DNA of 64,000 nt from an uncultured virus (IMG/VR IMGVR_UViG_3300010938_000024) (taxonomy: Duplodnaviria; Heunggongvirae; Uroviricota; Caudoviricetes): IMG/VR virus record IMGVR_UViG_3300010938_000024. One strand, 5' to 3'. Position numbers and translations under genes: made by a program. Shown piece by piece: positions 5,387 to 50,070 of the stretch; position 1 is the first letter of the stretch, and every line of letters begins with the position of its first letter. The notes beneath the pieces are model-generated. The model worked only from the letters and a program-made list of their open reading frames with translations, made no database searches and was not told where the DNA came from.

Positions 5387-5429
5387 TCTAAGTTTAATTA
5401 TATTACTAAATTATTTACAAAATCAAGAA

Positions 5430-5501
5430 TAAATAGCAATCCTGGAAAAACCAGGATTGCCCAGGAGGACTATTATGAAGAAAAAAGCAGATTAAATTAA
5501 A
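5430..5501 (-). ncRNA. candidate anti-RBS small RNA 1 (or structured 3'UTR)
   Basis: Extended -10 TGATATAAT at 5516-5508; body UUCUUCAUAAUAGUCCUCCU; 10-bp hairpin 5436-5460 followed by a U-rich tail. Confidence 0.45.
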
Positions 5502-6322
5502 CTTCTAATTATATCAGCCAATATTGCAGAAGGAGTATCAGGAACAACAATTTCATGATCAACTCTAGCCGGCAATATCTTTACTCTTATTGTAGAATTT
5601 CTAATCACATCAAAATAAACATATCCCGTAGCATCAGTTAAAAATATTTTACTATTCCAAGTTAATAATTTATCAGATGAAACTTGAGGTAATTTTACTA
5701 TATCAACTATTACTTGAACATTTTCTGCAGGATTTATCATAAAATCAATTAAATTAACATGTATCCTGCACATAGCAGGATCTGGTGCAGGACTATAAAT
5801 TAAAGGAATTCCCGTATAATCTAAATTCATATTTGCATTTAAAAACAAAGAATAAAAATTAAAAGAATATCCAGGCTTAAATCCCATTATTTTATAATTT
5901 CCTTGAGGCAATACAAATTGAACAAATCCATTAGAATCAGTCATTTTACCAGTTATAAAAATATTAGTATCATTATAAATATAAACAATTGCAAAAGGTA
6001 TTGTATTTGGAACAGGATTATTATCTTTGACTGTTATATTTAATATATAACCTCCTCCTCCTGCTTCCTGTGATATGTCTTTTACCGAAAAGGATCCTAC
6101 AGTTATATCACTTCCCCATGTAATAACATAAAAATAATTACCCACAGACAAAGTACCAGCATCAAAATAATATAAATAAAAAGTCCCTGGGATTAAAATC
6201 CCACTTCCTGAAGATATTGTATTTCCATTTAAATCTTTTATCTCTATAGTTGGAACTGGAGAAGATAAAGGAACTTCCCATATCAAAACTACATTTTCAT
6301 TTTTTAAAAAAAAGTTATTCAT
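5492..6322 (-). CDS. virion protein with Ig/carboxypeptidase-regulatory-like domains
   Basis: Repeated TD..G.V.F motifs, L..G.Y.I...K.GY. Confidence 0.65.
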   Translation of the reverse strand: MNNFFLKNENVVLIWEVPLSSPVPTIEIKDLNGNTISSGSGILIPGTFYLYYFDAGTLSVGNYFYVITWGSDITVGSFSVKDISQEAGGGGYILNITVKDNNPVPNTIPFAIVYIYNDTNIFITGKMTDSNGFVQFVLPQGNYKIMGFKPGYSFNFYSLFLNANMNLDYTGIPLIYSPAPDPAMCRIHVNLIDFMINPAENVQVIVDIVKLPQVSSDKLLTWNSKIFLTDATGYVYFDVIRNSTIRVKILPARVDHEIVVPDTPSAILADIIRSLI

Positions 6323-7311: not shown

Positions 7312-7467
7312 ATGTTCAGAGAAGTCTTAACATTGCTGGGAAGTTCATTAGGAGCCTGGCTAGGTCATGAAGTAGATTCATATATAACAAGTAAAAGAAA
7401 CCTAGACAGATATGAACCTTCCCAGTATGATGATGATGATAACCAATCCAACAACGACGAAGAGTAA
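7312..7467 (+). CDS. 51-aa protein with hydrophobic Gly-rich N-terminus and acidic tail
   Basis: SD AAGGAGGTGA, ORF MFREVLTLLGSSLGAWLGHE...YDDDDNQSNNDEE, followed by a terminator; not in the ORF track. Confidence 0.7.
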   Translation: MFREVLTLLGSSLGAWLGHEVDSYITSKRNLDRYEPSQYDDDDNQSNNDEE

Positions 7468-7493: not shown

Positions 7494-7530
7494 AAAAAAG
7501 GGGGAAAACTTTTCCCCCTTTCTTTTTTTT
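7494..7530. terminator. bidirectional intrinsic terminator
   Basis: A-run, GGGGGAAAA/TTTTCCCCC stem, T-run between convergent genes. Confidence 0.85.
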
Positions 7531-14001: not shown

Positions 14002-14353
14002 TACTTTCCTCCAACTTCTGAAATGTAATCTTTTTTAAATATATCTTAACCCAAGGATAAGCCCAAATAGCAGACACCCCTATCAAAAAACCATAACTGC
14101 CATTCTTAATTATATCTCCCACCGCTTCTTTCCATCCCTTATCTAAATTAATCCCATGCAAAATCAAATTCGCAAATATAGCTATTAACACAGGTAATAA
14201 TTTGCACATCACTACATCCCAAACAGAATCTTTTAAAACATTCATAGATTTAACCACTGATTTTAAAATCTCAGTGGCAAACCAAACAGGCAATACCACT
14301 AACACTGGAATATTACTAACAATCCATTCTGTTATTTTTAAAACATCTTCCAC
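13985..14353 (-). CDS. holin-like membrane protein
   Basis: Three hydrophobic segments, upstream of the endolysin; start moved to GTG 14353 because a TTGACT-16-TATAAT promoter overlaps the ORF-track start. Confidence 0.6.
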   Translation of the reverse strand: MEDVLKITEWIVSNIPVLVVLPVWFATEILKSVVKSMNVLKDSVWDVVMCKLLPVLIAIFANLILHGINLDKGWKEAVGDIIKNGSYGFLIGVSAIWAYPWVKIYLKKITFQKLEESNGNSV

Positions 14354-14510
14354 AACTATTATTATACACACAAAAAAATAAAAGTCAAGAAAATTTGCAA
14401 AAAAAATTATTTTTTAAAAAATTCCTCCCCTGCCAAAGGGGAAGGCAGGGAGGCTGCTGGAAAGACGCATTTATCTTTTCCAAATTTCTTATAATAAAAT
14501 TTTTAAAATC

Positions 14511-14582
14511 AAAAAAAAAGGGAGCTCCTGATTTTCATCAGGAAACTCCCCAACCACTGGAGGTAAAAATATGAAAAAACTA
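14511..14582 (-). ncRNA. candidate anti-RBS small RNA 2
   Basis: TTGACA-17-TATAAT (14617-14589); body UUUUUUCAUAUUUUUACCUCC; GAAA-loop hairpin followed by U9. Confidence 0.55.
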
Positions 14583-14755
14583 ATTTCAATTATACATAGT
14601 TTTATTAATTTTGTCAATTGCTATTAACAAATCACTAACCTCACTCCCCAAATTATTAATCCCCTCAAAATATTTTATAACTTCTATTAAATCCGGCAAT
14701 TCTATAATCTCACCATCCATTTCCAAATTTAATTCTTTTTCCTTTTTCATAATTT

Positions 14756-14962
14756 CTACTCCATTACTACCACTACAATAGCTGACATTCGGAATCTCAA
14801 CTTACAAGATTCACAATTACAATCTGCATATATCCAACCATTTTCATATTCAAATCTCAGTATAACCCAATTATCTGAATGGCATTTAGGACATTTTATT
14901 TCAAAACTTTGCCATTCAACATTTACCGGTTCCAACACTTTCTTATCTTTATGTCTTTTCAT
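14756..14962 (-). CDS. small zinc-ribbon protein
   Basis: CPKC...CESC. Confidence 0.55.
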   Translation of the reverse strand: MKRHKDKKVLEPVNVEWQSFEIKCPKCHSDNWVILRFEYENGWIYADCNCESCKLRFRMSAIVVVVME

Positions 14963-15097: not shown

Positions 15098-15811
15098 TTA
15101 AATTCTTATCTTTGTCTTTAATTTCAATAGTCCGCACTTAACCCTCCATTTAATTTTTTCAAATAAACTTTTATTTCTATAATCTAAATACTTCACAACT
15201 TCCTTCCCCGCAGATGATAAATAACTACAATCCTTTACAACCAAACCAGGACAGGAATTTATCTCTAATACTAAATACTTATTACCACATTTAACCAAAT
15301 CTATCCCCACAATTTCAACTTTAAAAACTTTATAAATCTTTTTAGAAATAATTTTAACCTGCTTCGGTATATGTTCAATTCTTTTAAATACAGCATCATT
15401 TCTAATTCTTCCATAATATCCACTAAATTCTTTCTTGTATAAACATATAACTTTTCCATAAACTGATACAACTCTATATTCTTCATCAAACTCAACTCTG
15501 GGAAGAATTATAGCAGGACCTTTTATTTCAGAATTTCCTACATAAACCGCTTTGTAAAAAGGGGGTTTCTTTATATAAGAATCTTCCACAATCTCAGATT
15601 CCCCCTCTCCAATAATCCTAAACTCTATACAAGGAATTTTCTCCCACTTTATCAAATTATACATAAATTCTTTATCTCTTATTCTATAATTAAAATTATT
15701 TATTACAGTTCTGGAAGATATAATAAAATTCCCTCCCCAATTCCAATCAAATTGAGGAAATCTCTCAGATAAAATATACCCTGTCTTATGATTATACGGA
15801 TTTATTAACAT
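15098..15811 (-). CDS. RimK-like ATP-grasp protein
   Basis: EYRV, GIDL....YLVLEINSCPG. Confidence 0.8.
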   Translation of the reverse strand: MLINPYNHKTGYILSERFPQFDWNWGGNFIISSRTVINNFNYRIRDKEFMYNLIKWEKIPCIEFRIIGEGESEIVEDSYIKKPPFYKAVYVGNSEIKGPAIILPRVEFDEEYRVVSVYGKVICLYKKEFSGYYGRIRNDAVFKRIEHIPKQVKIISKKIYKVFKVEIVGIDLVKCGNKYLVLEINSCPGLVVKDCSYLSSAGKEVVKYLDYRNKSLFEKIKWRVKCGLLKLKTKIRI

Positions 15812-15919
15812 ATTTTATCTCCAAACTTGAAATTAAACCCAGCATTTTATTATAATATAAATAACTTTCCATTCCATGCCTTCCCCATAAACCCTTAGAG
15901 AGGGATGAATAATCCCTCT

Positions 15920-16393
15920 CTAAATTTTTTTTAACCCCAATATATTATTTACAAATTCTATATCCTTCTTTTTAAAAACTACACTACAATATTTCCTCTG
16001 AACTAAACCAACTGGATCCACTTTCTCAAATCCAGTTAAATAAGACATAATCGCTAATCCAACCCCTACTACCCCATGCCCATCTTTATTCATAAATAAT
16101 ACATAATTATTATCTATACCCCTTAAATCCTCAAGAAAATCATTCCACCACTGAAAATTCAAAACCGATAAATCCTTGCCTACATTAACCTTAATCCTCT
16201 TATAACTTATATAACTCCTCTCCAACTTTAAACCTTCTACCTGAACTAAAGGATTTAAATTACAACCAAAATCAACTAATACCATATTGCTAAAATCCCA
16301 AACCCCATTTTTTGTTTCCCCAGCTCCATAAAACTCCAACTTAGAACCAGGATCCCTAAAAATAAATATATTGCCAGTATGACATAACATCAT
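15920..16393 (-). CDS. hypothetical protein, possibly a degenerate protein-tyrosine-phosphatase fold
   Basis: LFMNKDGHGVVG resembles CxxGxGRTG without Cys and Arg; downstream V...YC. Confidence 0.4.
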   Translation of the reverse strand: MMLCHTGNIFIFRDPGSKLEFYGAGETKNGVWDFSNMVLVDFGCNLNPLVQVEGLKLERSYISYKRIKVNVGKDLSVLNFQWWNDFLEDLRGIDNNYVLFMNKDGHGVVGVGLAIMSYLTGFEKVDPVGLVQRKYCSVVFKKKDIEFVNNILGLKKI

Positions 16394-16420
16394 AACCTCC
16401 TTATTAAAAAAAATTTTTCA

Positions 16421-16816
16421 ATCGTTGTACTGTACATGTACAACCAAAAACCCATCGTTGTACATGTACAACCAAGAACTCATCGTTGTACATGTACAAC
16501 GATATGCCTCTGGTTGTTACTAGTACAGTACAATATACTAGAACCGGTAGCTGTATAATCTAAGTACAAAAAGTAGTACGTAGTTAAGTAGTTAAGCAGT
16601 ACGTAGTACTTCTTTTCTTTGTACACTTTCTTTTCTTTAGCATTTGCTAACTATTAGCAAATGCTAACTACTTAACTACTAACTACTTAACTACTAACTA
16701 CTAACTACTAACTACTAACTACTAACTACTTAACTACTAACTACTAACTACTAACTACTTAACTACTAACTGCTTAACTACTTTTTTGGTACTTGGATAC
16801 AGTTACCGATTCCAGT
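16421..16816. repeat. palindromes, tandem repeats and long inverted repeat; putative replication origin
   Basis: 3x GTTGTACATGTACAAC-type palindromes (28-bp period, first copy imperfect), (CTACTAA/CTACTTAA)n 16668-16781, imperfect IR arms 16537-16600 and 16769-16816. Confidence 0.75.
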
Positions 16817-16838
16817 CTATTTTAGTAGTTATTTAGTT

Positions 16839-16880
16839 CCTTTAAACAACCAGCACCGGTGGGGTGCTGGTTGATAAAGG
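16839..16880 (-). terminator. stem-loop, probable terminator
   Basis: CAACCAGCACC/GGTGCTGGTTG stem downstream of the amidoligase gene. Confidence 0.6.
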
Positions 16881-16904
16881 AGATAGAATTTAGTAACTCT
16901 ATTT

Positions 16905-18518
16905 TTATAAGAAAATATTAAAGAATCCTAGTAGATAGGAGTTTATGTGATTAGTAATCCCTTTTATTATATTTTCTTTGTATTTATTAAACTCTTCTAT
17001 ATTCATTCTTACAGAATAAGGGAGTCCTATGTTACGATAGTTATCATATTCTATTAATTCAAATCCTTCTATTTTTATATTACTAACTAATCCTCTTGAA
17101 TTCTTAAACCCAAATATTGTAATAGGGGTAGGGATTACTTTGTTTGGTATTGTATATATTTTAATTAATTCATCTTCTAAAGTTTGTTTAATTTCATATA
17201 AAAAGCTATCTCTATTATTAAATAAAATTTCTATTAAGCAATTTGTATAAATAGGTTCTATCCATCTACTTATAAATAATTCATCTCTGCTTGTTTTTAT
17301 TGTTTCTATCATAGAATACATATAATCTAATTCTTCTTTATTTAATTCCCCCAAGGATATATAATCTTTTTCACTTGGGGGATCATTATATTCCAGAGTA
17401 GAGTTATAAATATAATTTTTTACTAAATTATGTACTAATTTATATATTATATAAGTTAATTTTGGATCATATAAATATGCTGATGGTATAGTTCTGTATT
17501 CAAATCCATGAGGTTTATATTCATAAGCCATTCTTTTGGCATAATCTCCTCTGGCTGAACCATTTAAACAGCAGAATATTCCTAAAAAATCATCTATATA
17601 TTTAATTATATTTGGATTTTTTATAATTTGATCATCTACTTTAGCCCCTACATGAATATGCCCTCCTAAAGAGAAATGGTCTCCTTTTACAGAAATATTG
17701 TAATTTTTTAAAGTTTTATGTGCAATAGTCAACAAATTTTTAATATTATCTACCACTTCTTCAGGGGAACCTGGGTTAGGTCTTAGCTCTAACTGAGCTC
17801 CAGACCCATCTATCCCTATACTCCCACATTCATGTCCAATACTTTCATATTCATGAGAAATAGTAGATATTATTCTTTCTGCAGAGATTACTCCTCTATC
17901 ATTAAATAATTCAAACTCTGGATCTCCCCCTAGAGTTATTTTTACATTTTTAATTTCTCTAGGTTCTCTAACCAGTTCTTTAAATATAGTCTTTATTTCT
18001 GGTAGAATTAATTCTAAAAACTGTGCTGAATTTCTATCATGACTCCAGTCAGAAGCAAATAGAAAATTAATCTCTGGATAATATATTCCTATTAAAGCAT
18101 TTCCTGGAGCATTTGATATATTTTCTTTATCATAATATAGTAAATACCCAATATTTATTTTTGGGTCTTTTACAAATGGAATATTAAAATAACTAAATAT
18201 ATCTTTATTATCAAATAAATAATTATCTGTAAGTTCATTTTTGTTACCTGTATTCCACTCAAAAAATACATATTTATCATTTACATTAAAACCTTGTTTC
18301 TTTATAATAATATTTTCAAATTTTGCAGAATATAATTTTTCCACTGTACTAAAAAACAGAGCTGTATTTGAAATTTCTCCTTTATAGAAATTAAAATGAC
18401 TTCTCATCTTTTCAAAATTGTCACATAATATATCTGCTACAAGATACAAACACTCATTGTTATTAAAATCAGGCATAAAATATTTTTTATACCCTCTCAT
18501 TTGTATTTTTTTTCCCAT
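16905..18518 (-). CDS. phiEco32-like COOH-NH2 ligase (amidoligase) 1
   Basis: LGGDPEF, IG.DG....ELRP.P, GGHIHVG, KPHGFEYRT. Confidence 0.85.
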   Translation of the reverse strand: MGKKIQMRGYKKYFMPDFNNNECLYLVADILCDNFEKMRSHFNFYKGEISNTALFFSTVEKLYSAKFENIIIKKQGFNVNDKYVFFEWNTGNKNELTDNYLFDNKDIFSYFNIPFVKDPKINIGYLLYYDKENISNAPGNALIGIYYPEINFLFASDWSHDRNSAQFLELILPEIKTIFKELVREPREIKNVKITLGGDPEFELFNDRGVISAERIISTISHEYESIGHECGSIGIDGSGAQLELRPNPGSPEEVVDNIKNLLTIAHKTLKNYNISVKGDHFSLGGHIHVGAKVDDQIIKNPNIIKYIDDFLGIFCCLNGSARGDYAKRMAYEYKPHGFEYRTIPSAYLYDPKLTYIIYKLVHNLVKNYIYNSTLEYNDPPSEKDYISLGELNKEELDYMYSMIETIKTSRDELFISRWIEPIYTNCLIEILFNNRDSFLYEIKQTLEDELIKIYTIPNKVIPTPITIFGFKNSRGLVSNIKIEGFELIEYDNYRNIGLPYSVRMNIEEFNKYKENIIKGITNHINSYLLGFFNIFL

Positions 18519-18936: not shown

Positions 18937-19479
18937 TTAGACTTGTCTGGATGTATTTTTAGGGATGGATTTAAATTCCCTAATAAAATTTTCAAATTTT
19001 AAATTTAGAGTACCATAGTCCTTTGAATTTATTATACATTCTCCTACTAAATAATCCCTAATATAAAATTTTACCACATCAATATATCTACCTATATCAA
19101 TAGACATATTAAGATTATATGTTTCTGGACTAAATATCTTACTTAAAATATTATTCATTGTAAAAAGTTTTTTCAATTCTCTTATATAATAAATTCTTCT
19201 ATCATCTACAAAAAAGATTGTTGGAAATACTGTATAAATCACTTTTCCTTCAGATCTATTTTTTACAGTATCTTCAGGATAATTTTCATAATGAGTCTCC
19301 ACAAGTTCCCCAAAATCATTAATTGAATAAGTTATCCCTTTCGGATTCACAACAAATACATCAGGCTTAAAATTTATATCTATTGATCTAAAAATGTCTT
19401 TATTCCTATCCAGATACCAATTATTCCCGAACAAATAATGCTCGGAAATATGAATGTTTTTTAAACACACAGTTCGCAT
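18937..19479 (-). CDS. hypothetical protein
   Basis: 180-aa ORF with AGGAGG SD. Confidence 0.6.
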   Translation of the reverse strand: MRTVCLKNIHISEHYLFGNNWYLDRNKDIFRSIDINFKPDVFVVNPKGITYSINDFGELVETHYENYPEDTVKNRSEGKVIYTVFPTIFFVDDRRIYYIRELKKLFTMNNILSKIFSPETYNLNMSIDIGRYIDVVKFYIRDYLVGECIINSKDYGTLNLKFENFIREFKSIPKNTSRQV

Positions 19480-24899: not shown

Positions 24900-26136
24900 A
24901 AAATCCTTGCCGTCTAAAACTCCTGAATTTATTCGTGGAAATATAGACGGCAATCTTTTTACTTGACATTTTAAGCAAATTTAATATATCACATAAAGTA
25001 TGAAAATAACTTACAGATACAGACTTTATCCCACAAAGAAACAGCAAACTATTCTTAATAATACTCTTGAAGAATGCCGTTGGCTTTACAACCATTTCCT
25101 TGAAGAACGCAAGAACTCATGGGAACAAGAAAAGAAATCTCTTAACTATCATTCCCAAGCCGTATCTATTGTCAAACTTAAACAGGATAGACAATCCCTT
25201 TCTGACATCCATTCTCAAGTTTTGCAAAATGTTGCAGTCCGAATAGATCTTGCTTTTAAAGCCTTTTTCCGTAGAGTTAAAGCAGNNNNNNNNNNNNNNN
25301 NNNNNNNNNNNNNNNNNNNNNNNNNNNNNNNNNNNNNNNNNNNNNNNNNNNNNNNNNNNNNNNNNNNNNNNNNNNNNNNNNNNNNNNNNNNNNNNNNNNN
25401 NNNNNNNNNNNNNNNNNNNNNNCAGCCAGAAGGAATTATTAAAACCTGCACTATCAGAAGGTCTGCTACTGGTAAATGGTATGCCACATTCTCCTGTATT
25501 GTAGAACCTAAACCACTTCCAAAATCCGATAAGGCTGTTGGGATTGATGTGGGACTTGTTTCGTTTGCAACTTTCTCCGATGGTAATAAGATAGACAATC
25601 CACGCTTCTTTAGAAAAGACCAAAAAGATATTGCCAAAGTTCAGAGAAAACTGTCCAAAGCCGAGAAGGGAAGCCCTGAAAGAGAGAAAAGACGCAAGGC
25701 AGTTGCTAAAGTGCATGAAAGAATATCCAATAGGCGTGATAATTTTTGTCATCAAGAAGCCAGAAAGATTGTTAATGCCTATGGAACTATTTGTATTGAA
25801 GATTTGTCTATTAATCAAATGGTTCATAATCATTGTTTGAATAAAAGTATTTACGATGTAGCATGGAATAAGTTTGCTCAATACCTGTCCTACAAAGCTG
25901 AAAATGCTGGTAGGATTTTGGTAAGAGTAAATCCTGCATATACAAGCCAAACCTGTAGCAAGTGCGGACATAGAGAAGTTAAAAAACTTTCTGATAGAAT
26001 CTATCATTGCTCCTGTTGTGGCTTTGTATGTGATAGAGACTATAATGCATCTTTAAATGTTTTGAGACTGGGAACACAGTCTTTAGGCTTTGTCTTAGAA
26101 GCCCCTTCCAATCTTTGATTGGTGGGGAATGTTCAC
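24900..26136 (+). mobile_element. non-autonomous IS200/IS605-family (tnpB-only) element 1
   Basis: Left hairpin TTGCCGTCTA...TAGACGGCAA after TTAT (24896-24899); right hairpin CCCC..CCAATC/GATTGG.GGGG ending in GTTCAC; no tnpA seen. Confidence 0.8.
25000..26118 (+). CDS. tnpB: TnpB RNA-guided endonuclease (contains an N gap)
   Basis: YRYRLYPT..Q HTH, GIDVG, IEDL, Zn ribbon, DRDYNAS; all three RuvC acidic residues present. Confidence 0.93.
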   Translation: MKITYRYRLYPTKKQQTILNNTLEECRWLYNHFLEERKNSWEQEKKSLNYHSQAVSIVKLKQDRQSLSDIHSQVLQNVAVRIDLAFKAFFRRVKAXXXXXXXXXXXXXXXXXXXXXXXXXXXXXXXXXXXXXXXXXXXXXXQPEGIIKTCTIRRSATGKWYATFSCIVEPKPLPKSDKAVGIDVGLVSFATFSDGNKIDNPRFFRKDQKDIAKVQRKLSKAEKGSPEREKRRKAVAKVHERISNRRDNFCHQEARKIVNAYGTICIEDLSINQMVHNHCLNKSIYDVAWNKFAQYLSYKAENAGRILVRVNPAYTSQTCSKCGHREVKKLSDRIYHCSCCGFVCDRDYNASLNVLRLGTQSLGFVLEAPSNL

Positions 26137-26538
26137 TTACCGCCTTTTAGTCTGTATTTTCCCATATATTTTCTGCCAATAACTCCATTCTGATTTGGAC
26201 ATTCTTTTTCGCATAATTTCTTCATTCCCAATATTCTTTATCCACAAATAGGCCCATTTTGGGTTTGTTATTCTTTTCATCATTATATTTCTATCTCCTA
26301 TGTCTAATGCCCAATAATAAGCCCATTCTGGATCTGTCACTCTTTTCATCATTATATTCCTATCGCCCACATAAAACCCCCAGTAATAAGCCCACATAGA
26401 AGGTATTCCCTTAGATATTTCTTCTAATGTAGCATCATTAGAAAATTTATTGACATGTTCTATAGCTTTCTTGACTTCTCTTTCACACCATCCGTATTTT
26501 TCTTTCAATATTTTCAATATATCTTTTTTTGTCTTCAT
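26137..26538 (-). CDS. Trp/Tyr-rich 21-aa repeat protein (paralog A)
   Basis: MKTKKDILKILKEKYGWCE N-terminus plus WAYYW...GDR.IM..R.T repeats; likely start overlaps the radical SAM stop. Confidence 0.7.
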   Translation of the reverse strand: MKTKKDILKILKEKYGWCEREVKKAIEHVNKFSNDATLEEISKGIPSMWAYYWGFYVGDRNIMMKRVTDPEWAYYWALDIGDRNIMMKRITNPKWAYLWIKNIGNEEIMRKRMSKSEWSYWQKIYGKIQTKRR

Positions 26539-27398
26539 TTTTTGCCTCCTACAAAAGGACATTTAATATCCTTTGGTCTGTTATTCCATATTTCTTCAAA
26601 ATTTTGTTTCAATAAATTTCCAATAGGGTTTCTAATAAAAGAACATACAAATACATTACCTAAACTATCTATATCACTAAATTTTTTTGATGCTAAACAA
26701 ACATTACATACCATTCCATCTACTGCAATTCTATATTTAGTATGTAATTGTCTAGCTAAATCATATATCTCTAATGAATCTACCTGATTTTCTATATCTC
26801 CATTTACCGGTTTATATGCAAGCAATAATACCTCTGCTTCATATTTTTCTGATAATTTTAAAATATTATCTAAATATTTCATATTATTTTTACTACATAC
26901 AAAATTTATCCCTAATTGAAATCCTTTTTTATATAAATTTTCTAATGCATCTTCAAAAAAACTTTGATTATGCCAAGAAATGTTAATTTGCTTAAAAAAA
27001 TTATTATCTGATATATCATTAAAACCATTTGTGGTCATACATACATTTAAACCTAATGAATTAGCATACTCAGCCAATTCAATATAATCATTTCTGAGGG
27101 TAGGCTCTCCACCTCCAAAAGTTATTTGAAATACTCCAGATTCTGCCAGTTGATTTATTATCTTTTTCCACTCGGCAGTAGAAAGCTCTTCTCCCTTTTT
27201 ATCAACATAACATTCCTTACATCGTAAATTACATTTATTAGAAATTTCCAGATGAACTACCTCTGGAGTAGTATCATCAGGAAATGAAGTGATATTAAAA
27301 TATTTACTAGATTCCTCCCTGCTAAATCTAAATATTGTATTAGTATCAGGTATAAACATTACAACTCCATCTGGAGTGATTTTTACTTTTTTAATCAT
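26535..27398 (-). CDS. radical SAM protein with SPASM/twitch-like C-terminus (PqqE-like)
   Basis: CNLRCKEC, GGGEP, TTNG, C...D..G.V..CSF...GN. Confidence 0.88.
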   Translation of the reverse strand: MIKKVKITPDGVVMFIPDTNTIFRFSREESSKYFNITSFPDDTTPEVVHLEISNKCNLRCKECYVDKKGEELSTAEWKKIINQLAESGVFQITFGGGEPTLRNDYIELAEYANSLGLNVCMTTNGFNDISDNNFFKQINISWHNQSFFEDALENLYKKGFQLGINFVCSKNNMKYLDNILKLSEKYEAEVLLLAYKPVNGDIENQVDSLEIYDLARQLHTKYRIAVDGMVCNVCLASKKFSDIDSLGNVFVCSFIRNPIGNLLKQNFEEIWNNRPKDIKCPFVGGKK

Positions 27399-28259: not shown

Positions 28260-28270
28260 TTTTTTAGACC

Positions 28271-28360
28271 TCCTTAAATATTTTGAAATTTAAAAATATA
28301 ATCTCTAGGTATCCAATCCTTAGAAGCCCCTTCCAATCTCTATTGATGGGGACCGTTCAC
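28271..28360 (+). mobile_element. orphan copy of the tnpB element 1 3' end / omegaRNA scaffold end
   Basis: CTTAGAAGCCCCTTCCAATCT identical to 26094-26114, similarity over about 85 nt, ends in GTTCAC. Confidence 0.8.
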
Positions 28361-28851
28361 CCCTCAGAGTTCCGATATGCTGATTCCAATTCTTTTACAA
28401 TTTTCATAGTTTCTTTATCTCCTAATGGTACACCAAGTTTTAATGCTTTTTCACTCATAATTTCTTTATCTCCAATAGTTATTGCCCACAAATTTATCCA
28501 TACTAAGTCTGTTACTCTATTTATCATTACATCTTTATTCCCTATAACCTTGGCCCACCAGTAGGCATATTTTGACTCTGTTATTTTATTTATCATTATA
28601 TCTCTATCACCAATATCTCTAGCCCAACAATATGCCCATGCTGAGTCTGTTATTTTATTTCTCATTATCTTCCTATCTCCTATATACAACCCCCAGTAAT
28701 AAGCCCACATTTCTGGAATTCCTTCCGCAATTTCTTCTATTGTAGCTTTGTCTGAAAAATTAGATACATATTTTATTGCTTTCCTAACTTCTTTTTCACA
28801 CCATCCATATTTATTTTCTTTTAAAATTTCTAATATTTCTTTTTTTTTCAT
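28357..28851 (-). CDS. Trp/Tyr-rich 21-aa repeat protein (paralog B)
   Basis: Clear paralog of 26137-26538; its TGA lies inside the orphan right end. Confidence 0.75.
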   Translation of the reverse strand: MKKKEILEILKENKYGWCEKEVRKAIKYVSNFSDKATIEEIAEGIPEMWAYYWGLYIGDRKIMRNKITDSAWAYCWARDIGDRDIMINKITESKYAYWWAKVIGNKDVMINRVTDLVWINLWAITIGDKEIMSEKALKLGVPLGDKETMKIVKELESAYRNSEG

Positions 28852-28866
28852 TTTTTTACCTCCTTT

Positions 28867-31807: not shown

Positions 31808-32403
31808 TTAAAATAATCTGGAACATATTTTTTATAAGTATCAACAATACGATAGCTATGAGTAGAATTGGAAAAAAGTATTCCCTTTTCCTCTTCAAAA
31901 TCTCCATAATAACTTATAGATTTGTTATCAATTACTACAAATTTTCCTTTAATTAAAGACAATAATTCAGTTCCTAAATAATGTACAGACATAGCTATAA
32001 ATCTACTATCTGACCACGGTCCAGCAGGTATTTTTATTCTGTTTATTAAACATAAAACTATTAATTCTTGTTCCCAATCTCCATGAATTCCATTATGAAA
32101 TAAAATAGGATCAGTTCCAGAATATTCCAACGAAATTCTACTAGTAGCATCTATTATAAATGGATGAGTTAATTCTGGACATACCTCCCCATCTGTTTTT
32201 TTTCTAAAATGAATTACATGGGGTATTACATCAAAACTCCGATAGAAATTTTTAAAATCTTCTGATTTCATAAACCCTTTCTTGTATTTTACTAAATTAT
32301 CTTTATAATATCCAATTCCTACTCCATCATCATTATTTATAAATGCATTTCTAATTTCATTATCCGACATTTTTCTGTTTTGACAAATTGCTATTAAACA
32401 CAT
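31798..32403 (-). CDS. class II glutamine amidotransferase (Ntn hydrolase)
   Basis: N-terminal MC, N.DG.G, HFR..T.G, HPF, HNG, SDS. Confidence 0.88.
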   Translation of the reverse strand: MCLIAICQNRKMSDNEIRNAFINNDDGVGIGYYKDNLVKYKKGFMKSEDFKNFYRSFDVIPHVIHFRKKTDGEVCPELTHPFIIDATSRISLEYSGTDPILFHNGIHGDWEQELIVLCLINRIKIPAGPWSDSRFIAMSVHYLGTELLSLIKGKFVVIDNKSISYYGDFEEEKGILFSNSTHSYRIVDTYKKYVPDYFNWR

Positions 32404-33860
32404 TTTGATTCCTCCTTTCTTTTTATTTTAAATTTTTCTAATTCTTTTTTCAATATTTCAAAAACACAATTATATGTTTTTAAATAATATTCTAAATCTG
32501 TTCTAAATAAATAAGGAAATCCTATTTTAATATTATCTGCAATTATAATTGGAAATCCATTTATATAATTCCAAATACCAGAATTTTGAATATTTGGTAT
32601 ATTGGAAACTAATCCTCTAGATTCATTAAATCCAAAGAATATTATGTTTAAATTATCCAAAACTAAATAATTAGAAAAATATTTTTGAACTTCATTTTCT
32701 ATATCTGAGTCCCATTCATCACTAAACTTAATAACTAAATCTACAAATCTTTTTTTATGTCTATACCAACCCGCAATAAAAACATTTTTATTTCTACTTA
32801 ATTTTCTAAGTTTATTTATATTCTCTATATAAAGATCAGTTTCTTTTTCTGTAAGACCTCCAACTTCCATAAGATCTTTTCTAGTTACAGGAACAGAATA
32901 TTCTATAACCTCAGAATTAACATATTTATTTGCCAAATTGTAAGCTAATTTCAATACTATTTCAGCAATTTTTGGATTCTGAAATATGATACTAGGAGGA
33001 GTTCTATATTCTAATCCATGAGGCTGTATTCTATACTTTCCCAATGCCTTGTAATCTCCTCTAGCCTCACCTGATAACTCTATAGTAAATCTTCCTATAA
33101 AATCATCTAAAATAGGAACTAACTTTTCAAACCCTCTTCTAGCAAAAGATCCATTCTTTCTAAATCCTATATGGATATGCCCTCCCAAAGGATAAATATC
33201 CCCTTTTACACTCAACTTAGTATTATGATTTTTATAAAAATCACTAATTAATTTTTTCAATCTCCTAACTACATATGCAGGACTTCCTGGAATAGGTCTT
33301 AACTCTAATTGATTACCCCAACCATCAGTCCCAATCTCATCATCTAAAATTTTATCTCCAAAAAGATCTGATGCATCAATAACACAATACGGTCTTGTTT
33401 TGGTAAAAATTTCATATTCTGGATCACAACCTACAGTAATTTCAATCTTTTTCTCTACTTTTTTTAATCCTAATTTTTTCACTAAATAATTTGCTAAAAT
33501 ATATCTATCCAAACTAACAATTTCATTATTATTCAATAAAGGAATAAAAGAAATTAATATATTTTTTTCCGGCAAATAATACCCATAAACAGTATTGGTG
33601 AAAATATTAATTATTCTATATGCTTTTTTTCCTTTTTTAGAATTTATAATTGTAGAAAAATTATTTAAAACTAAATTTAATTTCACATTTATATAAATAT
33701 CTTTAACTATATTTAATATATAATAATTTGAATTATAAAGATCTAATATTAAAGTATTTTTACTTTCTGTTTTATCATTTGTTATAAATCTAAAATAATC
33801 TGCCAATATACACTCCTGTTCTAAACCACTGAACTCCATTTTTCCCGGTTCAATCTTCAA
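32394..33860 (-). CDS. phiEco32-like COOH-NH2 ligase (amidoligase) 2
   Basis: VGCDPEY, IGTDG....ELRP.PG, GGHIHIG, QPHGLEYRT; paralog of 16905-18518. Confidence 0.85.
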   Translation of the reverse strand: MKIEPGKMEFSGLEQECILADYFRFITNDKTESKNTLILDLYNSNYYILNIVKDIYINVKLNLVLNNFSTIINSKKGKKAYRIINIFTNTVYGYYLPEKNILISFIPLLNNNEIVSLDRYILANYLVKKLGLKKVEKKIEITVGCDPEYEIFTKTRPYCVIDASDLFGDKILDDEIGTDGWGNQLELRPIPGSPAYVVRRLKKLISDFYKNHNTKLSVKGDIYPLGGHIHIGFRKNGSFARRGFEKLVPILDDFIGRFTIELSGEARGDYKALGKYRIQPHGLEYRTPPSIIFQNPKIAEIVLKLAYNLANKYVNSEVIEYSVPVTRKDLMEVGGLTEKETDLYIENINKLRKLSRNKNVFIAGWYRHKKRFVDLVIKFSDEWDSDIENEVQKYFSNYLVLDNLNIIFFGFNESRGLVSNIPNIQNSGIWNYINGFPIIIADNIKIGFPYLFRTDLEYYLKTYNCVFEILKKELEKFKIKRKEESKCV

Positions 33861-35956: not shown

Positions 35957-36022
35957 ATTATATCATTTTGAAAAAACTATTTTCAAATCCCTGTTGAAAT
36001 TACCTTAAATATTTGATAAAAT
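35957..36022. promoter_or_regulatory. divergent sigma70-like promoter pair
   Basis: Minus: TTGAAA-18-TATAAT 7 nt before ATG 35949. Plus: TTGAAA-17-TAAAAT 10 nt before ATG 36033. Confidence 0.65.
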
Positions 36023-36032: not shown

Positions 36033-37409
36033 ATGAACATATTACTTTTAGATGTTGCAATGTTTTCAATGATCCAAACCTTATTAGATGAAGGTAATAA
36101 AATCACTTATTTATGTCCTTCTGAAATATTAAATGAAGTCAAAAATGTATTTGGTGAAAAAATAAATATAATAGACCAAAATAAACTAAATACAAATTAT
36201 GATATTGTAATTTCCTGTGGTGTAGAAAAAAAAGTTCTTCCCATTGTTGATAAATTTAAAAAAACAGGAATACCCGTTATTGGTGCTGGAACAAGAATGG
36301 CAGCTATAGAACTAAACAGAAAATTAGGAAAACAAGTAATTGAAAAATTTGGAATTCAAGTACCTAGATACACAGAATTAAAAGCAAAAAATATTCCTAC
36401 ATACATAAAAGAAAGAAAAATACCCCAGGTTTTAAAACCGAATGATAATAAAGCTGTTTATTATACTATAGTTCCTAATACTATAGAAGATAGTATTCAT
36501 GGAGCTGAAATAATCATAAAAGACATAGGACCCGAAACCCCAGTAGAAGTAGAAGATTTTATAGATGGAATAGAAGTAGGGATTGAAACATTTATGGGAA
36601 AAGAAAATTTTATCTATCCCATAAATGTCAGTTTTGAACATAAAAAAACAAATGATTTTAATCTTGGAAGATTAAGTGGTGAGTCTGGAACCAGTATGTA
36701 TTATGAAGATAATCCAAAATTATTTCAACAAACACTTGGTAAATTAAGAGATTTTTTAATTAAAATGAGTTATATAGGAGATATTTGCACAGGATTAATA
36801 GTAAATGAAAAAGGAATTTATTTTTTAGAATTTACTGTAAGATTTGGTATTCCTGAAATAATAATGCAATTAAAAGCAATGCCTTCTTCTGGATTAACTA
36901 AATTTTTTATAGATTTATTTAGACCAGGAACTCAATATGTAAATATAGAAGATATATTTTTAAATGGAATTAGATATTATAATCCAGGAGCTCCTTATAA
37001 AGAATCTTATCAAAAAAGAGGATATGGAGAAATAATTACCTATAAAAAGAAACCAATTACTCTAGAACAAACTTATGAATTAAATAGACAAAATATAGGA
37101 TTTTTTGATTTTGATGTAGAAAATAATCAAATAATAACTCCTGGTAGTGTTGCTTCTGTTTGCACAATAGGTAAAGGAATAACTTTAACTGAAGCTATTT
37201 TAAATTCCTACAAAGAAGCATGTAATATTAGTATAAATGGAGGTTTTTATAGAACAGATATAGGATTTGATTTGGTAAATTATCAAGCTGGAGAACTCTA
37301 TAATTTAGGATATATTCCAGCAGATAAATATAAAAGAATGCATAATCCTGATTTAAATATAAGAAAATTTTTAAATTCTGTAAAAAGAGGTGAAGAATGG
37401 CTAATTTAA
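36033..37409 (+). CDS. PurD (GAR synthetase)-like ATP-grasp ligase
   Basis: E..R..GK, VLKP, EDFIDG.E, EHKK, GESGT, LEFT.RFG.PE, YRTDIG; divergent N-terminus. Confidence 0.75.
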   Translation: MNILLLDVAMFSMIQTLLDEGNKITYLCPSEILNEVKNVFGEKINIIDQNKLNTNYDIVISCGVEKKVLPIVDKFKKTGIPVIGAGTRMAAIELNRKLGKQVIEKFGIQVPRYTELKAKNIPTYIKERKIPQVLKPNDNKAVYYTIVPNTIEDSIHGAEIIIKDIGPETPVEVEDFIDGIEVGIETFMGKENFIYPINVSFEHKKTNDFNLGRLSGESGTSMYYEDNPKLFQQTLGKLRDFLIKMSYIGDICTGLIVNEKGIYFLEFTVRFGIPEIIMQLKAMPSSGLTKFFIDLFRPGTQYVNIEDIFLNGIRYYNPGAPYKESYQKRGYGEIITYKKKPITLEQTYELNRQNIGFFDFDVENNQIITPGSVASVCTIGKGITLTEAILNSYKEACNISINGGFYRTDIGFDLVNYQAGELYNLGYIPADKYKRMHNPDLNIRKFLNSVKRGEEWLI

Positions 37410-37573
37410 CTCCAGAACAAAAAAACATGATAGATCATTTTTTTCAAAAATTAAGAAAAACATTTCCTAACTTATCAGAACAAGAAGCTCTGAAAATAGT
37501 TATGGTACAATTGATACGAATTGCATATCTTCCACCTGATATAATCAAGAGATCACCTTCTCTTAATATTTAA
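37397..37573 (+). CDS. 58-aa hypothetical protein
   Basis: SD GAGGTGA; MANLTPEQKNMIDHFF...; not in the ORF track. Confidence 0.55.
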   Translation: MANLTPEQKNMIDHFFQKLRKTFPNLSEQEALKIVMVQLIRIAYLPPDIIKRSPSLNI

Positions 37574-37906
37574 TGTTTTTCTGTTAATTACAGAATCTGG
37601 TTTTATAATTACAGATTTTTCTAATTTAGAAGCCAGTTTTTTAAATTTCTCAATTTTTGCCATAATTTCTTTTTCACTGGGTTTTCCATATAAAATATCT
37701 TTTATATTTTTATGAATTTTGTTAACAGCTTCTATATTCTCATTTGTTACTGAAGCTTGAGTTATTAATAAAGCTAAATTAGAAAAAAATTCGTATCTTC
37801 GTCTGAGAGTTGCTACTGCAATAGCTTCTTGAATTTTGTTTTCAAATTTTAAATTATTTAATAAATATAATTCTGCTTTAAACCAAAAATCTTCACATTC
37901 GTCTAT
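37553..37906 (-). CDS. -1 frameshift extension of the tail chaperone (G-T-like)
   Basis: 117 open codons in the -1 frame starting at the A9 run (IDECEDFWFKAELY...), with no ATG near its start. Confidence 0.7.
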   Translation of the reverse strand: MDECEDFWFKAELYLLNNLKFENKIQEAIAVATLRRRYEFFSNLALLITQASVTNENIEAVNKIHKNIKDILYGKPSEKEIMAKIEKFKKLASKLEKSVIIKPDSVINRKTLNIKRR

Positions 37907-38331
37907 TTTTTTTTAATGTCTGAATTTAATAATTTACTAACTTCTAATCTAAAATTATCTAATAACTCAAGCATTTTATCAGTTAGAGGATAGGGAAGTT
38001 CTCTTACTAAATCCAATCTACTGCGACTTTTTGGAGGAATTGGATTGTTATTATTATCATATTCTATTTTATTTTCAAAAGGTAAATTTTCCCAATCTTC
38101 ATTACCAAATTTTTTAATAGCCATTGCTAAATATCTTAAAGAATATGTAGTAGCATTTATACCAGTCTGAGGAATATTATTTATTTGTTCTATTTCTTTT
38201 GATAATAAAGACCTAAAAATAAATTTTATTGATCCGATTTTATATTCTTTCCATACTCTTCCTTTGAATAAGAGTGATTCAATACTGAAGTCTTCTTGTA
38301 ATTCTTCTTCTTTTTTTGATTCTTCTGCCAT
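37903..38331 (-). CDS. tail assembly chaperone (G-like)
   Basis: Acidic N-terminus, ends ...DIKKK on an A9 slippery run, adjacent to the tape measure gene. Confidence 0.7.
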   Translation of the reverse strand: MAEESKKEEELQEDFSIESLLFKGRVWKEYKIGSIKFIFRSLLSKEIEQINNIPQTGINATTYSLRYLAMAIKKFGNEDWENLPFENKIEYDNNNNPIPPKSRSRLDLVRELPYPLTDKMLELLDNFRLEVSKLLNSDIKKK

Positions 38332-38401
38332 TCTTTTTCCTCCTTTAATATTATATTTTCTGCTGAACCTTCTATTTCTTTAAATAAAGCCATTATCTAT
38401 A

Positions 38402-38465
38402 ATTATAATAACAAAATAATAAATGTCAAGTTTTTATTGACTTTAACTCTTAAATCCATTAAAAT
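38402..38465. promoter_or_regulatory. divergent sigma70-like promoters
   Basis: Minus TTGACA...TATAAT; plus TTGACT-17-TAAAAT 8 nt before the tape measure ATG. Confidence 0.65.
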
Positions 38466-38473
38466 TAAAAGTA

Positions 38474-41437: not shown

Positions 41438-41439
41438 AA

Positions 41440-44050: not shown

Positions 44051-45280
44051 ACTACTGACAGCTAAAGCAGTCAGTTTTAAGAGGAATATGCGAAACGAAG
44101 TTCAACATACTCACATCTTTTCGGGGCTGTTTATAAAAAGCCCCCAACTGAGCAATATTCTGAGCCGCATTAACATCGGCGTTACTAACACTGCCACAGT
44201 TTGGACAAGTAAAATACTTGCCATTCCTATTACCAATCATTTTGCACACATTGCAGATTTTACTCGTATAGCGAGGATCAACTACAACAAGAGGGATACC
44301 AGCAAGTTTAGCCTTGTATTCAAGAAAAGAACGGAGTTGGGAGAAAGCCCAGGAGTGATGTCTTCGTCTTTGAGCTTTTCTTACAGGAGTTCTTTCTCTG
44401 ATGTGGGTCAAGTCTTCAATAGCAATCCCTTTTCCTTCGGTTACAGCCTTTTCTACAATTCGCTTTGCTATGGTGTGATTGGTAATAGTGGTGAATCTCT
44501 GTTCTCTGCCTTTAAGCCGTTTCAGGAGCTTTCTGCTTCCTGTTGTGCCTTTGCTTTGAACGGATTTACGCACTTTGAAATATTTATCTCTAACTTGGTT
44601 CAACTTTTCAGAATTAAAACTTGTTCCATCAGAAAGTGTAGCTATGTTGGTTATTCCAAGATCCACCCCTATAAATTCCTTAACATCTTTAACATTATCT
44701 TCAGGAACTTCAACAGTCTGAAAAAGATAAAACTTGCTTTTTTTATAAACAAGGTCTGCTTCCCCTTTGATATACGGCAGATATTTAGGATTATGGCAAA
44801 GAAAAGGTATTTTCAATCTGCCGTCAACAGACCAAATGGAGGCAATTTGTTTTTCAATATTATAAGAAAGAATACGAGAATCATAAGCAATAGCACCAAG
44901 AGGTTTAAATCTTCTCTGAATTTTTTTGTCAAGTTTATAAGCATCAACTACCTTACTAATACAACGAACAAGCATTTGGGCAGAAAGCTGAGTAACCTTT
45001 TTCAAGGGGTGATAAATGAGATGGTGAACCTTAAATTGGTTAAAAACTTTCTCTTTCCATATCACATTGGAAATTTGGTTACAGGCATTATTAGCCTCTT
45101 TAAGAGTTGTCAAAAGAGATTTTGCCTGTTTATCAGAAGGAAGAAGTTTTATTTGCAAGGTAAGTTTCATAGTGATAATATATATCAGATGTTTGAATAT
45201 GTCAAGAGAAATCTTTTAAGAAAGGAGGATGGGCAATTCATCCGCCAGCTAAAGCAGGCGGTCTCCTTGCCCTGTTTTCT
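44047..45280 (-). mobile_element. non-autonomous IS200/IS605-family (tnpB-only) element 2
   Basis: Related subterminal hairpins with a GCTAAAGC core at both ends; removal restores an ATGA stop/start overlap; predicted TAM TCAT. Confidence 0.85.
44052..45170 (-). CDS. tnpB: TnpB RNA-guided endonuclease
   Basis: GVDLG, IEDL, W.F.QL...LEYKA, YTS..C..C...CPNCG, NADVNAA. Confidence 0.93.
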   Translation of the reverse strand: MKLTLQIKLLPSDKQAKSLLTTLKEANNACNQISNVIWKEKVFNQFKVHHLIYHPLKKVTQLSAQMLVRCISKVVDAYKLDKKIQRRFKPLGAIAYDSRILSYNIEKQIASIWSVDGRLKIPFLCHNPKYLPYIKGEADLVYKKSKFYLFQTVEVPEDNVKDVKEFIGVDLGITNIATLSDGTSFNSEKLNQVRDKYFKVRKSVQSKGTTGSRKLLKRLKGREQRFTTITNHTIAKRIVEKAVTEGKGIAIEDLTHIRERTPVRKAQRRRHHSWAFSQLRSFLEYKAKLAGIPLVVVDPRYTSKICNVCKMIGNRNGKYFTCPNCGSVSNADVNAAQNIAQLGAFYKQPRKDVSMLNFVSHIPLKTDCFSCQ

Positions 45281-45991
45281 ATGAGGGAATTAAGAGAAAA
45301 ACAACAATTTGAATTAGAACAATGGCATTTGTGGAAGAAAACAAAGGATCCTGCTGTTTTAAATAATCTAATGAATTCATTTAAACCTTTAGTAAAAAAG
45401 CAAGTTAATATTTGGAGAGGGAATTTACCAGATGTTTTTTTGGAAGCAGAAGCAAATAAATTATTATTTAATGCTTTGAATACTTATGACCCTAAGAAAG
45501 GAACTGCTTTAAATACTCATATTACAAATCAATTAAAACCAATATCCAGATTTGTATATACATTTCAAAATGTTGTTAGAATTCCTTCTGAAGAAAGGAT
45601 AAGAAGGATTGGTAGATTACAAACAGCCATTAGTGAACTATCTTCAGAATTAGGAAGACCTCCCACTTCTTTGGAGTTAGCAGAAAGACTAGTCTGGAAT
45701 GTAAATGATATTGAAAAATTACTTAAAGAAATGCATACTGAAAAAATAGAATCATTTGGTTTTACAGGAAATCCTGTTTATTTTGAACCAAAAGTAAGAA
45801 GAATTCTAGAAGCAATTTATGTAGATTTAGAACCTAAAGAAAGACTTGTTTTTGAACATTTAACAGGATATGGAGGAAAACAAGTATATCCTATAGAGCA
45901 AATTAGTAGAATAACAGGAATGCCTGTTAGTGAAATAAATAAATTTAAAAAATCTATAGAAAAAAAGGTAAAAGACTTTGGCTCTTTGTAA
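45281..45991 (+). CDS. phage RNA polymerase sigma factor (FliA/SigF-like)
   Basis: Region 2 A...YDP.KG, RIP, region 3 LGRPPT..ELA..L, C-terminal HTH. Confidence 0.8.
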   Translation: MRELREKQQFELEQWHLWKKTKDPAVLNNLMNSFKPLVKKQVNIWRGNLPDVFLEAEANKLLFNALNTYDPKKGTALNTHITNQLKPISRFVYTFQNVVRIPSEERIRRIGRLQTAISELSSELGRPPTSLELAERLVWNVNDIEKLLKEMHTEKIESFGFTGNPVYFEPKVRRILEAIYVDLEPKERLVFEHLTGYGGKQVYPIEQISRITGMPVSEINKFKKSIEKKVKDFGSL

Positions 45992-47933: not shown

Positions 47934-48602
47934 TTACCTCCATTTTTCAAGATAACGAATATTTTTATTTTTCTCACACCCATATAAAATTGCAATATCT
48001 TTTGCCTCATCTATTGAATTGGGTGAGGAGGCATGAAATATTATAGGCTTGTTCTCTGGGATTTTATCTATTACCTGTTTTATTTCCTCCAGAGAACAAG
48101 TTTTATCTATCACTAGTCTATATTCATCAGCTAATGGAGATAGTTGCCACCCAGATTGTCGTTTGGGTGACAAACTAATATACAATTTCAATCCGTGATT
48201 TTTTTCATGATATTTCTGATATAATTTATCAATAATTTTTGGGTTGGTGCCATTTGTTCGCACCACCAAATACCCATCCTTTCTACAGCTTAATAACAAT
48301 TCCCTTACCAACACAGGGAATTGTTTATGAATAGTAGGCTCTTCTGTAATACATATATCTATATATCTATTTTCTAGTGAGATAGCTCTAGAAACTATAT
48401 CATAAACATAAAAATAACCATTAAATCCAAAAAACCTATTTTTATTTATATATCTATTTTCACATTCACTACACCAATCCCCGTAGTCTATTATATTGCA
48501 TCCTAGCAATTTAATAAAATAAGTGGGAACACCTACCCTTAACCCCTCATCCTGGAATGCAATATAATCTTCTAACAAAGGTAGTTTATCTTTTTTTTCC
48601 AT
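47934..48602 (-). CDS. QueE-like radical SAM protein (divergent)
   Basis: FQ.EG...G.P..FI.L.GCN...C..C, TNGT, SLSPK; the GGEP motif is degenerate (TEEP). Confidence 0.7.
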   Translation of the reverse strand: MEKKDKLPLLEDYIAFQDEGLRVGVPTYFIKLLGCNIIDYGDWCSECENRYINKNRFFGFNGYFYVYDIVSRAISLENRYIDICITEEPTIHKQFPVLVRELLLSCRKDGYLVVRTNGTNPKIIDKLYQKYHEKNHGLKLYISLSPKRQSGWQLSPLADEYRLVIDKTCSLEEIKQVIDKIPENKPIIFHASSPNSIDEAKDIAILYGCEKNKNIRYLEKWR

Positions 48603-48738
48603 TTTTTACCTCCTGGTTTTTTTTAATTTGATCTAGGCTCAAATTTATAAAAAGCCTGCTGGAGATGAGTCCAGCCCTCATAAAAAATAAATTAAATTCT
48701 AAGATATTTAAATTTCTTATAACAGATTTTCAAATCTT

Positions 48739-49071: not shown

Positions 49072-49097
49072 ATTTTAAAACCTCCTTTTTTTGATTT

Positions 49098-49460: not shown

Positions 49461-49461
49461 T

Positions 49462-50034: not shown

Positions 50035-50070
50035 CTTATTTAAAATAATATCATAAATCCAGCTGTAAAT

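Follow-up and report, generated by a model that had tools for sequence, protein, structure and literature searches.

Small RNAs that are transcribed from a promoter inside a gene and lie in the 3′ untranslated region (3′UTR) of its mRNA have their textbook cases in the enterobacterial DapZ and MicL. In low-GC Gram-positive bacteria, RsaE/RoxS and the loops of RNAIII carry C-rich or anti-Shine–Dalgarno (anti-SD) motifs, and the icaR mRNA of Staphylococcus aureus reportedly pairs an anti-SD motif in its 3′UTR with the start region at its own 5′ end. Among phages, RNAs of about 70 nucleotides (nt) that have their own promoter and terminator and act at or near ribosome-binding sites are already known, and indeed classical: P22 sar (68/69 nt), the c4 RNA of phages P1/P7 and lambda OOP (77 nt) are described in the available text of PMC12197685. 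In T4-type phages, promoter/stem-loop cassettes (PeSLs) stand between orphan genes, and the available parts of PMC2839356 and PMC4122927 present them as repeated, conserved elements of ∼100 base pairs that end in the SD sequence and start codon of the next gene. Here we examine the minus-strand locus at 14511–14617 of a 64,000-nt stretch of DNA (the window, meaning the whole stretch analysed) from the uncultured caudoviricete virus IMG/VR IMGVR_UViG_3300010938_000024, for which a preliminary description had proposed a small RNA complementary to ribosome-binding sites plus start codons.

The locus shares with DapZ and MicL a promoter in the upstream coding sequence, use of the parent mRNA's terminator, an unpaired seed immediately before the hairpin of that terminator, and an expected action at SD sequence and start codon; it differs from them in belonging to a phage, in having a seed that complements the whole 21-nt consensus start region rather than that of one gene, and in lacking any sequence relationship. 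Because a seed left unpaired 5′ of the terminator, a position in the 3′UTR and a promoter inside the preceding gene are the standard anatomy of 3′UTR-type small RNAs, the minus-strand reading of the locus fits better than a plus-strand one. With RsaE/RoxS and RNAIII the predicted RNA shares an unpaired, pyrimidine-rich CCUCC-type motif suited to G-rich SD sites; unlike theirs, the motif occupies a linear 5′ tail, not the loop of a hairpin, and reaches across the start codon. No Rfam 15 family matches anywhere in the window at gathering score, and in 14200–14800 the best score, with RsaE/RoxS-type models included, is 19.8 bits against a cut-off of 186. Like sar, c4 and OOP, the RNA is phage-encoded, ∼70 nt long, furnished with its own promoter and terminator and (here by prediction) able to pair near a ribosome-binding site; as far as the available text of PMC12197685 describes them, those three have one defined cis or operon-internal target with a real product, whereas here the only cis ORF (open reading frame) is a doubtful one of 18 amino acids (aa) and the best targets are in trans. 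We tentatively interpret the locus as encoding a 3′UTR-nested base-pairing small RNA that would cover the SD sequence and AUG of some phage mRNAs, a reading that we favor while placing it somewhat short of probable.

The probable transcription unit at 14511–14617

Sites and genes are named below by their coordinates in the window, and a bare gene number is a gene's start position. The promoter, P1 (14589..14617, minus strand), consists of TTGACA (14617–14612), a 17-nt spacer and TATAAT (14594–14589), matching the sigma-70-type consensus at 12 of 12 positions; the non-coding stretch, GAAA-capped hairpin and U9 that had been reported downstream of it are likewise all present. Promoters of this quality number two in the window, as compared to 0.15 per Markov shuffle, and the other (38429–38402, minus) is intergenic, in front of gene 38331. 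Among the seven minus-strand sites that match at 11 or more of 12 positions, five stand where a promoter is needed (60678, 38429, 35986, 14388 and 7206), from which we infer that the phage uses consensus sigma-70 or host-type promoters; the remaining two are P1 itself (14617) and 45205, which faces an antisense ORF.

Transcription from P1 would begin at ∼14582, about 7 nt past the −10 box, and yield an RNA of ∼72 nt. Its first 30 nt (UAGUUUUUUCAUAUUUUUACCUCCAGUGGUU; 14553..14582, minus) are predicted to be essentially unpaired, and are followed by a hairpin of 14 pairs that contains a bulge and is capped by a GAAA loop, and then by U9, which together form the intrinsic terminator T1 (14511..14551, minus; hairpin 14551–14520, U9 14519–14511). 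The fold has a free energy of −24 kcal/mol (z −3.6), and none of 200 shuffled sequences is as stable. To place the spacing of promoter and terminator against chance, the window was scanned for promoters matching at 11/12 or better that have a terminator downstream, its tail holding five Ts or more, at a distance giving an RNA of 40–130 nt. The window holds two such units, as compared to a mean of 0.025 in 40 shuffles (maximum 1), an excess of ∼80-fold that makes an accidental origin of the short unit very unlikely. These sequence features make it very likely that a short, discrete transcription unit with a strong promoter and a terminator at its end does exist here.

The unit is nonetheless not the stand-alone transcript that had been described, since P1 falls within the last ten codons of a 54-aa ORF (14750..14586, minus). 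This ORF begins with GGAG-N8-ATG, ends at TGA 14588–14586 and has the C-terminus I D K I N K T M Y N stop where it overlaps P1; its start-site score of 11.9 compares with a training median of 12.5, and its SD sequence, tight spacing and a protein call support it further. It is the last gene of a small-gene operon in which 57-, 68- and 54-aa ORFs are tightly packed behind a RimK-like ATP-grasp gene. The 30-nt unpaired stretch is thus also the operon's 3′UTR, and T1, the first terminator past the stop codon, is common to the small RNA and the operon mRNA. A second intrinsic terminator in tandem with T1, T2 (14415..14455, minus), has a CCUCCC/GGGGAGG stem followed by a U-run. Beyond it stands the next operon's own promoter, P2 (14361..14388, minus; TTGACT-16-TATAAT, 11/12), and an in-frame GTG at 14353, 7 nt past the P2 −10 box, makes a near-leaderless start. 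Like the PeSLs, as far as the available parts of their two sources go, the locus combines a strong sigma-70-like promoter with a terminator stem-loop between small orphan genes, and the T2–P2 segment is similar to them; in contrast to the PeSLs of those texts, the promoter P1 precedes its terminator, so that a short RNA would be made. No repeat family in the window covers 14372–14617 or links this unit to a second candidate at 5430–5516, described below.

The segment 14572–14589 is identical at 17 of 18 positions to 35969–35986 (minus), the first transcribed bases after P1 (TTGAAATTAGTTTTTTCA) corresponding to the −35 box and spacer of the ligase promoter. In part the shared sequence forms a palindrome, TGAAA-N7-TTTCA, and a weaker copy of it lies at 19158–19176; N6 spacing gave no matches. 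We considered an operator common to 14572–14589 and the ligase promoter and set it aside, the counts being weak and in part counted twice since the motif is palindromic. An IS200/IS605-type end or a miniature element was also set aside, there being no repeat that links 14511–14617 to the transposase region.

Complementarity to start regions and predicted targets

The anti-start-site core of the unpaired part (14579–14559, minus) reads U6, CAU (14573–14571), 7 nt and CCUCC (14563–14559). It is the reverse complement of GGAGGTAAAAATATGAAAAAA, that is, of GGAGGT-N6-ATG-AAA-AAA, as had been noticed in the preliminary description, and the unpaired stretch is complementary to the start-region consensus of the phage (aaGGAGGtaaaaaaATGaaaaaa). 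The SD-led genes of the phage have a strong common consensus, aaaGGAGGtaaaaaaATGaaaaaa. The best predicted trans target is the start region of gene 28357..28851 (28843..28863, minus), complementary at 20 of 21 positions, with a cofolding free-energy difference (ddG) of −21.9 kcal/mol; the second-best is that of 47934..48602, which encodes a QueE-like radical SAM protein (48597..48618, minus; ddG −21.7). Shorter complementary matches, earlier listed as partial ones, are found at 47931 (13/13) and 61268 (16/17), and pairing at 48602, listed with them, is predicted to be strong. Because SD-led genes share the consensus, the 20/21 match at 28851 amounts to a match to that consensus; moreover, genes 28851 and 26538 and the truncated 47931 are paralogues of one another, which explains several of the earlier partial matches.

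Against all 69 start regions, the seed reaches a ddG of −15 kcal/mol or better in 10, as compared to a mean of 1.7 and a maximum of 4 for 30 shuffled seeds, and −20 kcal/mol or better in two (28851 and 48602), as compared to none for shuffled seeds. The complement of a start site is also placed non-randomly. GGAGG-N4-10-ATGAA occurs 11 times in the window where 1.05 are expected; nine of these are minus-strand sites, gene starts among them, and the only two on the plus strand are the units at 14511 and 5430, each within 10 nt of a minus-strand terminator. CCTCC occurs four times in minus-strand intergenic gaps, three of them as CAT-N-CCTCC. Start-site complement and minus-strand terminator are therefore linked by something other than chance.

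In the mechanism that we favor, host RNA polymerase would start at P1 and produce the ∼72-nt RNA ending at the U9 of T1, while the full operon mRNA would end with the same sequence. The unpaired 5′ 30 nt would pair across the SD sequence and start codon of a subset of SD-led phage mRNAs, and this pairing would block binding of the 30S subunit and so stop their translation. What we infer from these features is that such an RNA is produced and persists, that pairing takes place in vivo, and which mRNAs are affected; the predicted targets are, in order, 28851 and 48602, then 55171, 18810, 61268, 22207 and 18518. Provided that it is made, the RNA would be a base-pairing regulator of a phage in a lineage without cultured or sequenced relatives, with a seed aimed at the phage's own consensus start region and not at one gene. 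The earlier proposal that such RNAs occlude SD-led initiation sites is accordingly retained as predicted pairing with phage mRNAs (10 of 69 start regions as compared to 1.7 for shuffled seeds), whereas its extension to a global switch between SD-led and leaderless translation is weakly supported.

Several observations weigh against this reading. At a ddG of −8 kcal/mol or better the seed binds 33 start regions and shuffled seeds bind a mean of 35, so that the excess seen at the two stricter cut-offs is absent, and the caution attached to the preliminary description, that the match is of low complexity, was justified. The seed is also generic: when the reverse complement of each start region serves as the seed in its turn, it ranks sixth of 69. 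Because an anti-start-site sequence is generic, the RNA would act on most genes of the phage itself as well, and no specific target stands out by logic. The plus-strand start site at 14571 is unremarkable in a fixed-register position-weight model (score 9.4, 13th on the plus strand), a model that is diluted by variable SD spacing and that we do not use as evidence.

The second unit, earlier described as being of the same design, is so only in part. This unit (5425..5516, minus) has CAT (5477–5475), N6 and CCTCC (5468–5464), then a hairpin (5461–5435, −19.3 kcal/mol) and a U-rich tail; upstream lie TGATATAAT (5516–5508), the stop codon of gene 5492..6322 and a U-rich run. Its supposed promoter is unsupported because there is no −35 box and because the TGnTATAAT-type motif TGNTATAAT occurs 10 times in the window where 10.3 are expected by chance. 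The stretch at 5430–5516 is thus an anti-start-site unit without a credible promoter, which also tells against our reading of 14511–14617. As judged from their sequences, the two units have in common not a promoter but the complement of a start site, placed after a stop codon and ahead of a terminator. With icaR as it is said to act, the locus shares an anti-SD sequence in a 3′UTR just before a terminator, and the 5430–5516 unit, without a credible promoter, would fit that pattern best; it differs in that pairing with the operon's own start sites is moderate and predicted (−19.4 kcal/mol at 14962 and −18.2 kcal/mol at 14750, by duplexfold).

No close relative that could inform on conservation or covariation was found in any search: blastn against GenBank phages and against plasmids gave no usable relative; four neighboring proteins and an exact 28-mer of DNA gave none in IMG/VR; polymerase and ligase queries gave none among GTDB genome contigs; the 537-aa ligase found a single relative in JGI metagenomes, at 26% identity (L001); and the 54-aa ORF matched only itself, on two contigs, in a collection of 5.8 billion proteins. 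The polymerase is ∼24% identical to its best GenBank phage match. We also looked for the design itself in IMG/VR, as TTGACA-N17-TATAAT-N5-30-CAT-N5-8-CCTCC with an order-reversed control, clustering matches by promoter sequence and scoring terminators within 30 nt. The test pattern gave at least 120 matches and the control 81; among the test matches listed, 31 of 120 face an antisense ORF of more than 30 aa, and are probably real gene starts, and 89 face short ORFs. Terminator-adjacent clusters make up 9 of 67 among the test matches listed and 3 of 43 in the control, a difference that is not significant. The scan that had been suggested of other phages for promoter, CAT-N5-8-CCTCC and terminator thus shows no clear enrichment, and gives no evidence for an enriched class of such units.

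Six of the IMG/VR loci (L004, L057, L066, L080, L085 and L120) are consensus-promoter units of ∼60–90 nt that expose a CCUCC and have a strong terminator; in L080, L085 and L120 the CCUCC motif lies in the loop of a small 5′ hairpin.

Alternative explanations

The alternative that survives best, although we consider it rather unlikely, is that the features are incidental: T1 and T2 would be the operon's tandem terminators and nothing else, the start-site-like sequence an orphan or relic, for example of a cassette inversion or replacement at a conserved start-region boundary, and P1 purposeless or due to chance. P1 does lie within ordinary AT-rich codons (ATT GAC AAA ... TAT AAT TGA), the anti-start-site stretch at 5430–5516 without a credible promoter means that promoter and stretch are not obligatorily linked, and the match at 28851 is one to the consensus of dozens of genes. 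A relic of a former plus-strand gene start is possible because a genuine plus-strand small gene, 7312–7467 with GGAGG-N9-ATG, exists inside the minus block, so that plus-strand start sites here can be, or were, genuine. What this account leaves to coincidence is a 12/12 promoter followed after 72 nt by a strong terminator, at ∼80-fold the shuffled frequency, and the presence of a start-site complement within 10 nt of two of the ∼5 intergenic minus-strand terminators; a relic, moreover, would be expected to show homology past the 21-nt start region or a repeat family, and neither is seen. If there is only an operon terminator and a fortuitous promoter, the locus would still carry a methodological lesson: when the start regions of an AT-rich genome follow a strong consensus, the reverse complement of any one of them will match many genes.

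The small gene at 7312–7467 encodes 51 aa without a family match, and a bidirectional terminator follows it at 7497–7521; a hydrophobic 46-aa ORF antisense to it, probably spurious, extends across the hairpin of this terminator.

The possibility, also raised in the preliminary description, of an antisense RNA to a plus-strand ORF, as in type I toxin–antitoxin loci or in the manner of P22 sar/ant, is an improbable one. Here the micro-ORF at 14571..14627 (plus; 18 aa, MKKLISIIHSFINFVNCY) would be translated and the minus-strand RNA would cover its SD sequence and AUG. The antisense RNA does overlap the start region of the micro-ORF with perfect complementarity, by construction; the plus-strand SD sequence is strong and ideally spaced (GGAGG-N7-ATG-AAA-AAA), the peptide is moderately hydrophobic, and sar (68/69 nt) and c4 are phage RNAs that act on ribosome-binding sites according to the available text of PMC12197685. 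Against this reading, the ORFs are very short, at 18 aa here and 6 aa (MKKKAD) at the 5425..5516 unit, and the one here shares 42 nt with the 3′ end of the 54-aa gene; its hydrophobic run has 12 residues, is interrupted by H, S and N, and could not form a membrane helix at that length, so that the membrane-spanning toxin of a type I locus is missing. Nor does the micro-ORF have a promoter and terminator of its own, no plus-strand promoter above 9/12 being found within 330 nt and no plus-strand terminator before 15895. The plus strand is locally C-rich and non-coding, with a GC skew of −0.51 that marks the minus strand as the local coding strand. By its sequence, then, the micro-ORF is probably not a gene, and the toxin–antitoxin alternative, although its antisense overlap is present, is weakly supported.

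Very unlikely, in our judgment, is a global switch, in which an abundant anti-SD RNA would titrate SD-led starts of the host and of the phage's early genes while leaderless messages take over late; at least one very strongly promoted RNA of ∼70 nt would then progressively shut SD-led internal cistrons with leaderless first genes still translated, and a class-wide change of initiation mode would time translation in a lytic phage. P1 is as strong as a promoter of its type can be, the seed complements the consensus and reaches −15 kcal/mol or better in pairing with 10 of the 69 start regions, and the phage does have two initiation classes, namely internal cistrons with GGAGG SD sites and operon-first genes that start 6–10 nt past a −10 box. 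At least seven operon-first starts look leaderless or near-leaderless: 35949 (ligase), 14353 (GTG), 7168, 5386 (endonuclease) and 45170 on the minus strand, and 36033 and 38474 on the plus strand. The near-leaderless class that had been expected to escape the RNA therefore exists, whereas its equation with virion transcripts does not follow, for its members are of mixed function, with a DNA ligase and an endonuclease among them and no identified virion gene. Most phage genes, including the replication genes, are SD-led and would be hit as well, and titration of all mRNAs would need a stoichiometric excess of the RNA. Because the leaderless genes are not identified virion genes and most replication genes are SD-led, a class-wide switch is conceivable and unsupported. 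The split between SD-led internal and leaderless operon-first genes does offer a simple, testable system for the sorting of messages by initiation mode.

Least likely of all is a leader–attenuator in the style of lambda PR′–tR′/6S, with constitutive transcription from P1 stopping at T1/T2 unless a phage antiterminator allows read-through: a strong promoter and close tandem terminators do precede a long run of same-strand genes, and two IMG/VR matches (L023 and L051) have a gene start directly past the terminator, but P2, an independent promoter of 11/12, stands past T2 in front of the downstream operon, so that the genes of this operon need not depend on read-through as lambda late genes do, and Pfam/PHROGs scans of the neighboring genes, which included no dedicated search for antiterminators, revealed none.

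Genome context and other features

The other promoter–terminator unit recovered by the window scan, absent from the preliminary description, lies at 15827..15932 on the plus strand. It consists of TTGAAA-18-TATAAT (11/12), a 32-nt unpaired C-rich stretch containing CCUUCCCC (…CCAUGCCUUCCCCAUAAACCC), a 12-bp hairpin and U8, with a fold of −19.7 kcal/mol (z −5.3). It is antisense to the junction of genes 15920..16393 and 15098..15811, upstream of gene 15811, and lies 1.2 kb from P1–T1, so that the small operon has one unit at each of its ends. Two units of ∼70 nt with a pyrimidine-rich unpaired 5′ part raise the likelihood that this phage encodes small RNAs.

The window is AT-rich, with a GC content of about 0.25–0.34, and the phage is lytic-looking. 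Since the 54-aa protein recurs identically on two contigs of the 5.8-billion-protein collection, the longer of 76,889 bases, the genome is probably about 77 kb. Nearly all genes are on the minus strand in 1–35949 and 47934–64000, with a plus-strand block at 36033–47741. Pfam and PHROGs scans identified replication and repair genes (a family A DNA polymerase, a DnaB-type helicase, RecA, an SNF2 helicase and an ATP-dependent DNA ligase), as well as two phiEco32-type COOH-NH2 ligases, ATP-grasp proteins, a DNA methylase, an intein/HNH gene, a sigma-70-region-3 protein and a transposase-like gene; none of the window's genes could be assigned to a structural protein, and no tRNA gene was found in the window.

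The two phiEco32-type COOH-NH2 ligases occur in this one phage together with RimK-like and GARS-like ATP-grasp proteins (15098–18518, 32394–33860 and 36033–37409), which suggests a peptide- or amide-bond-forming modification system. The intergenic region 16394–16904 holds three 28-nt direct repeats with the palindrome TGTACATGTACA (16431–16514) and ∼120 nt of TAACTAC-type tandem repeats (16658–16780), and may be an origin or iteron region. A transposase-like gene (25000–26118, plus; phrog_506, E = 3e-103) has a masked run of Ns inside it (25286–25422). The paralogous genes 26137..26562 and 28357..28851 are ∼72% identical over 300 nt, with a truncated copy at 47931, and 3′ of these paralogues and the truncated copy is a hairpin-like conserved motif, ccccaNcaat..agattggaagggg (26008–26136 and 28260–28356). 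Finally, two ORFs overlap on opposite strands in 44052–45284, namely 44088..45284 (plus, 398 aa) and 44052..45170 (minus, 372 aa), the latter starting 6 nt past an 11/12 promoter at 45205–45177.

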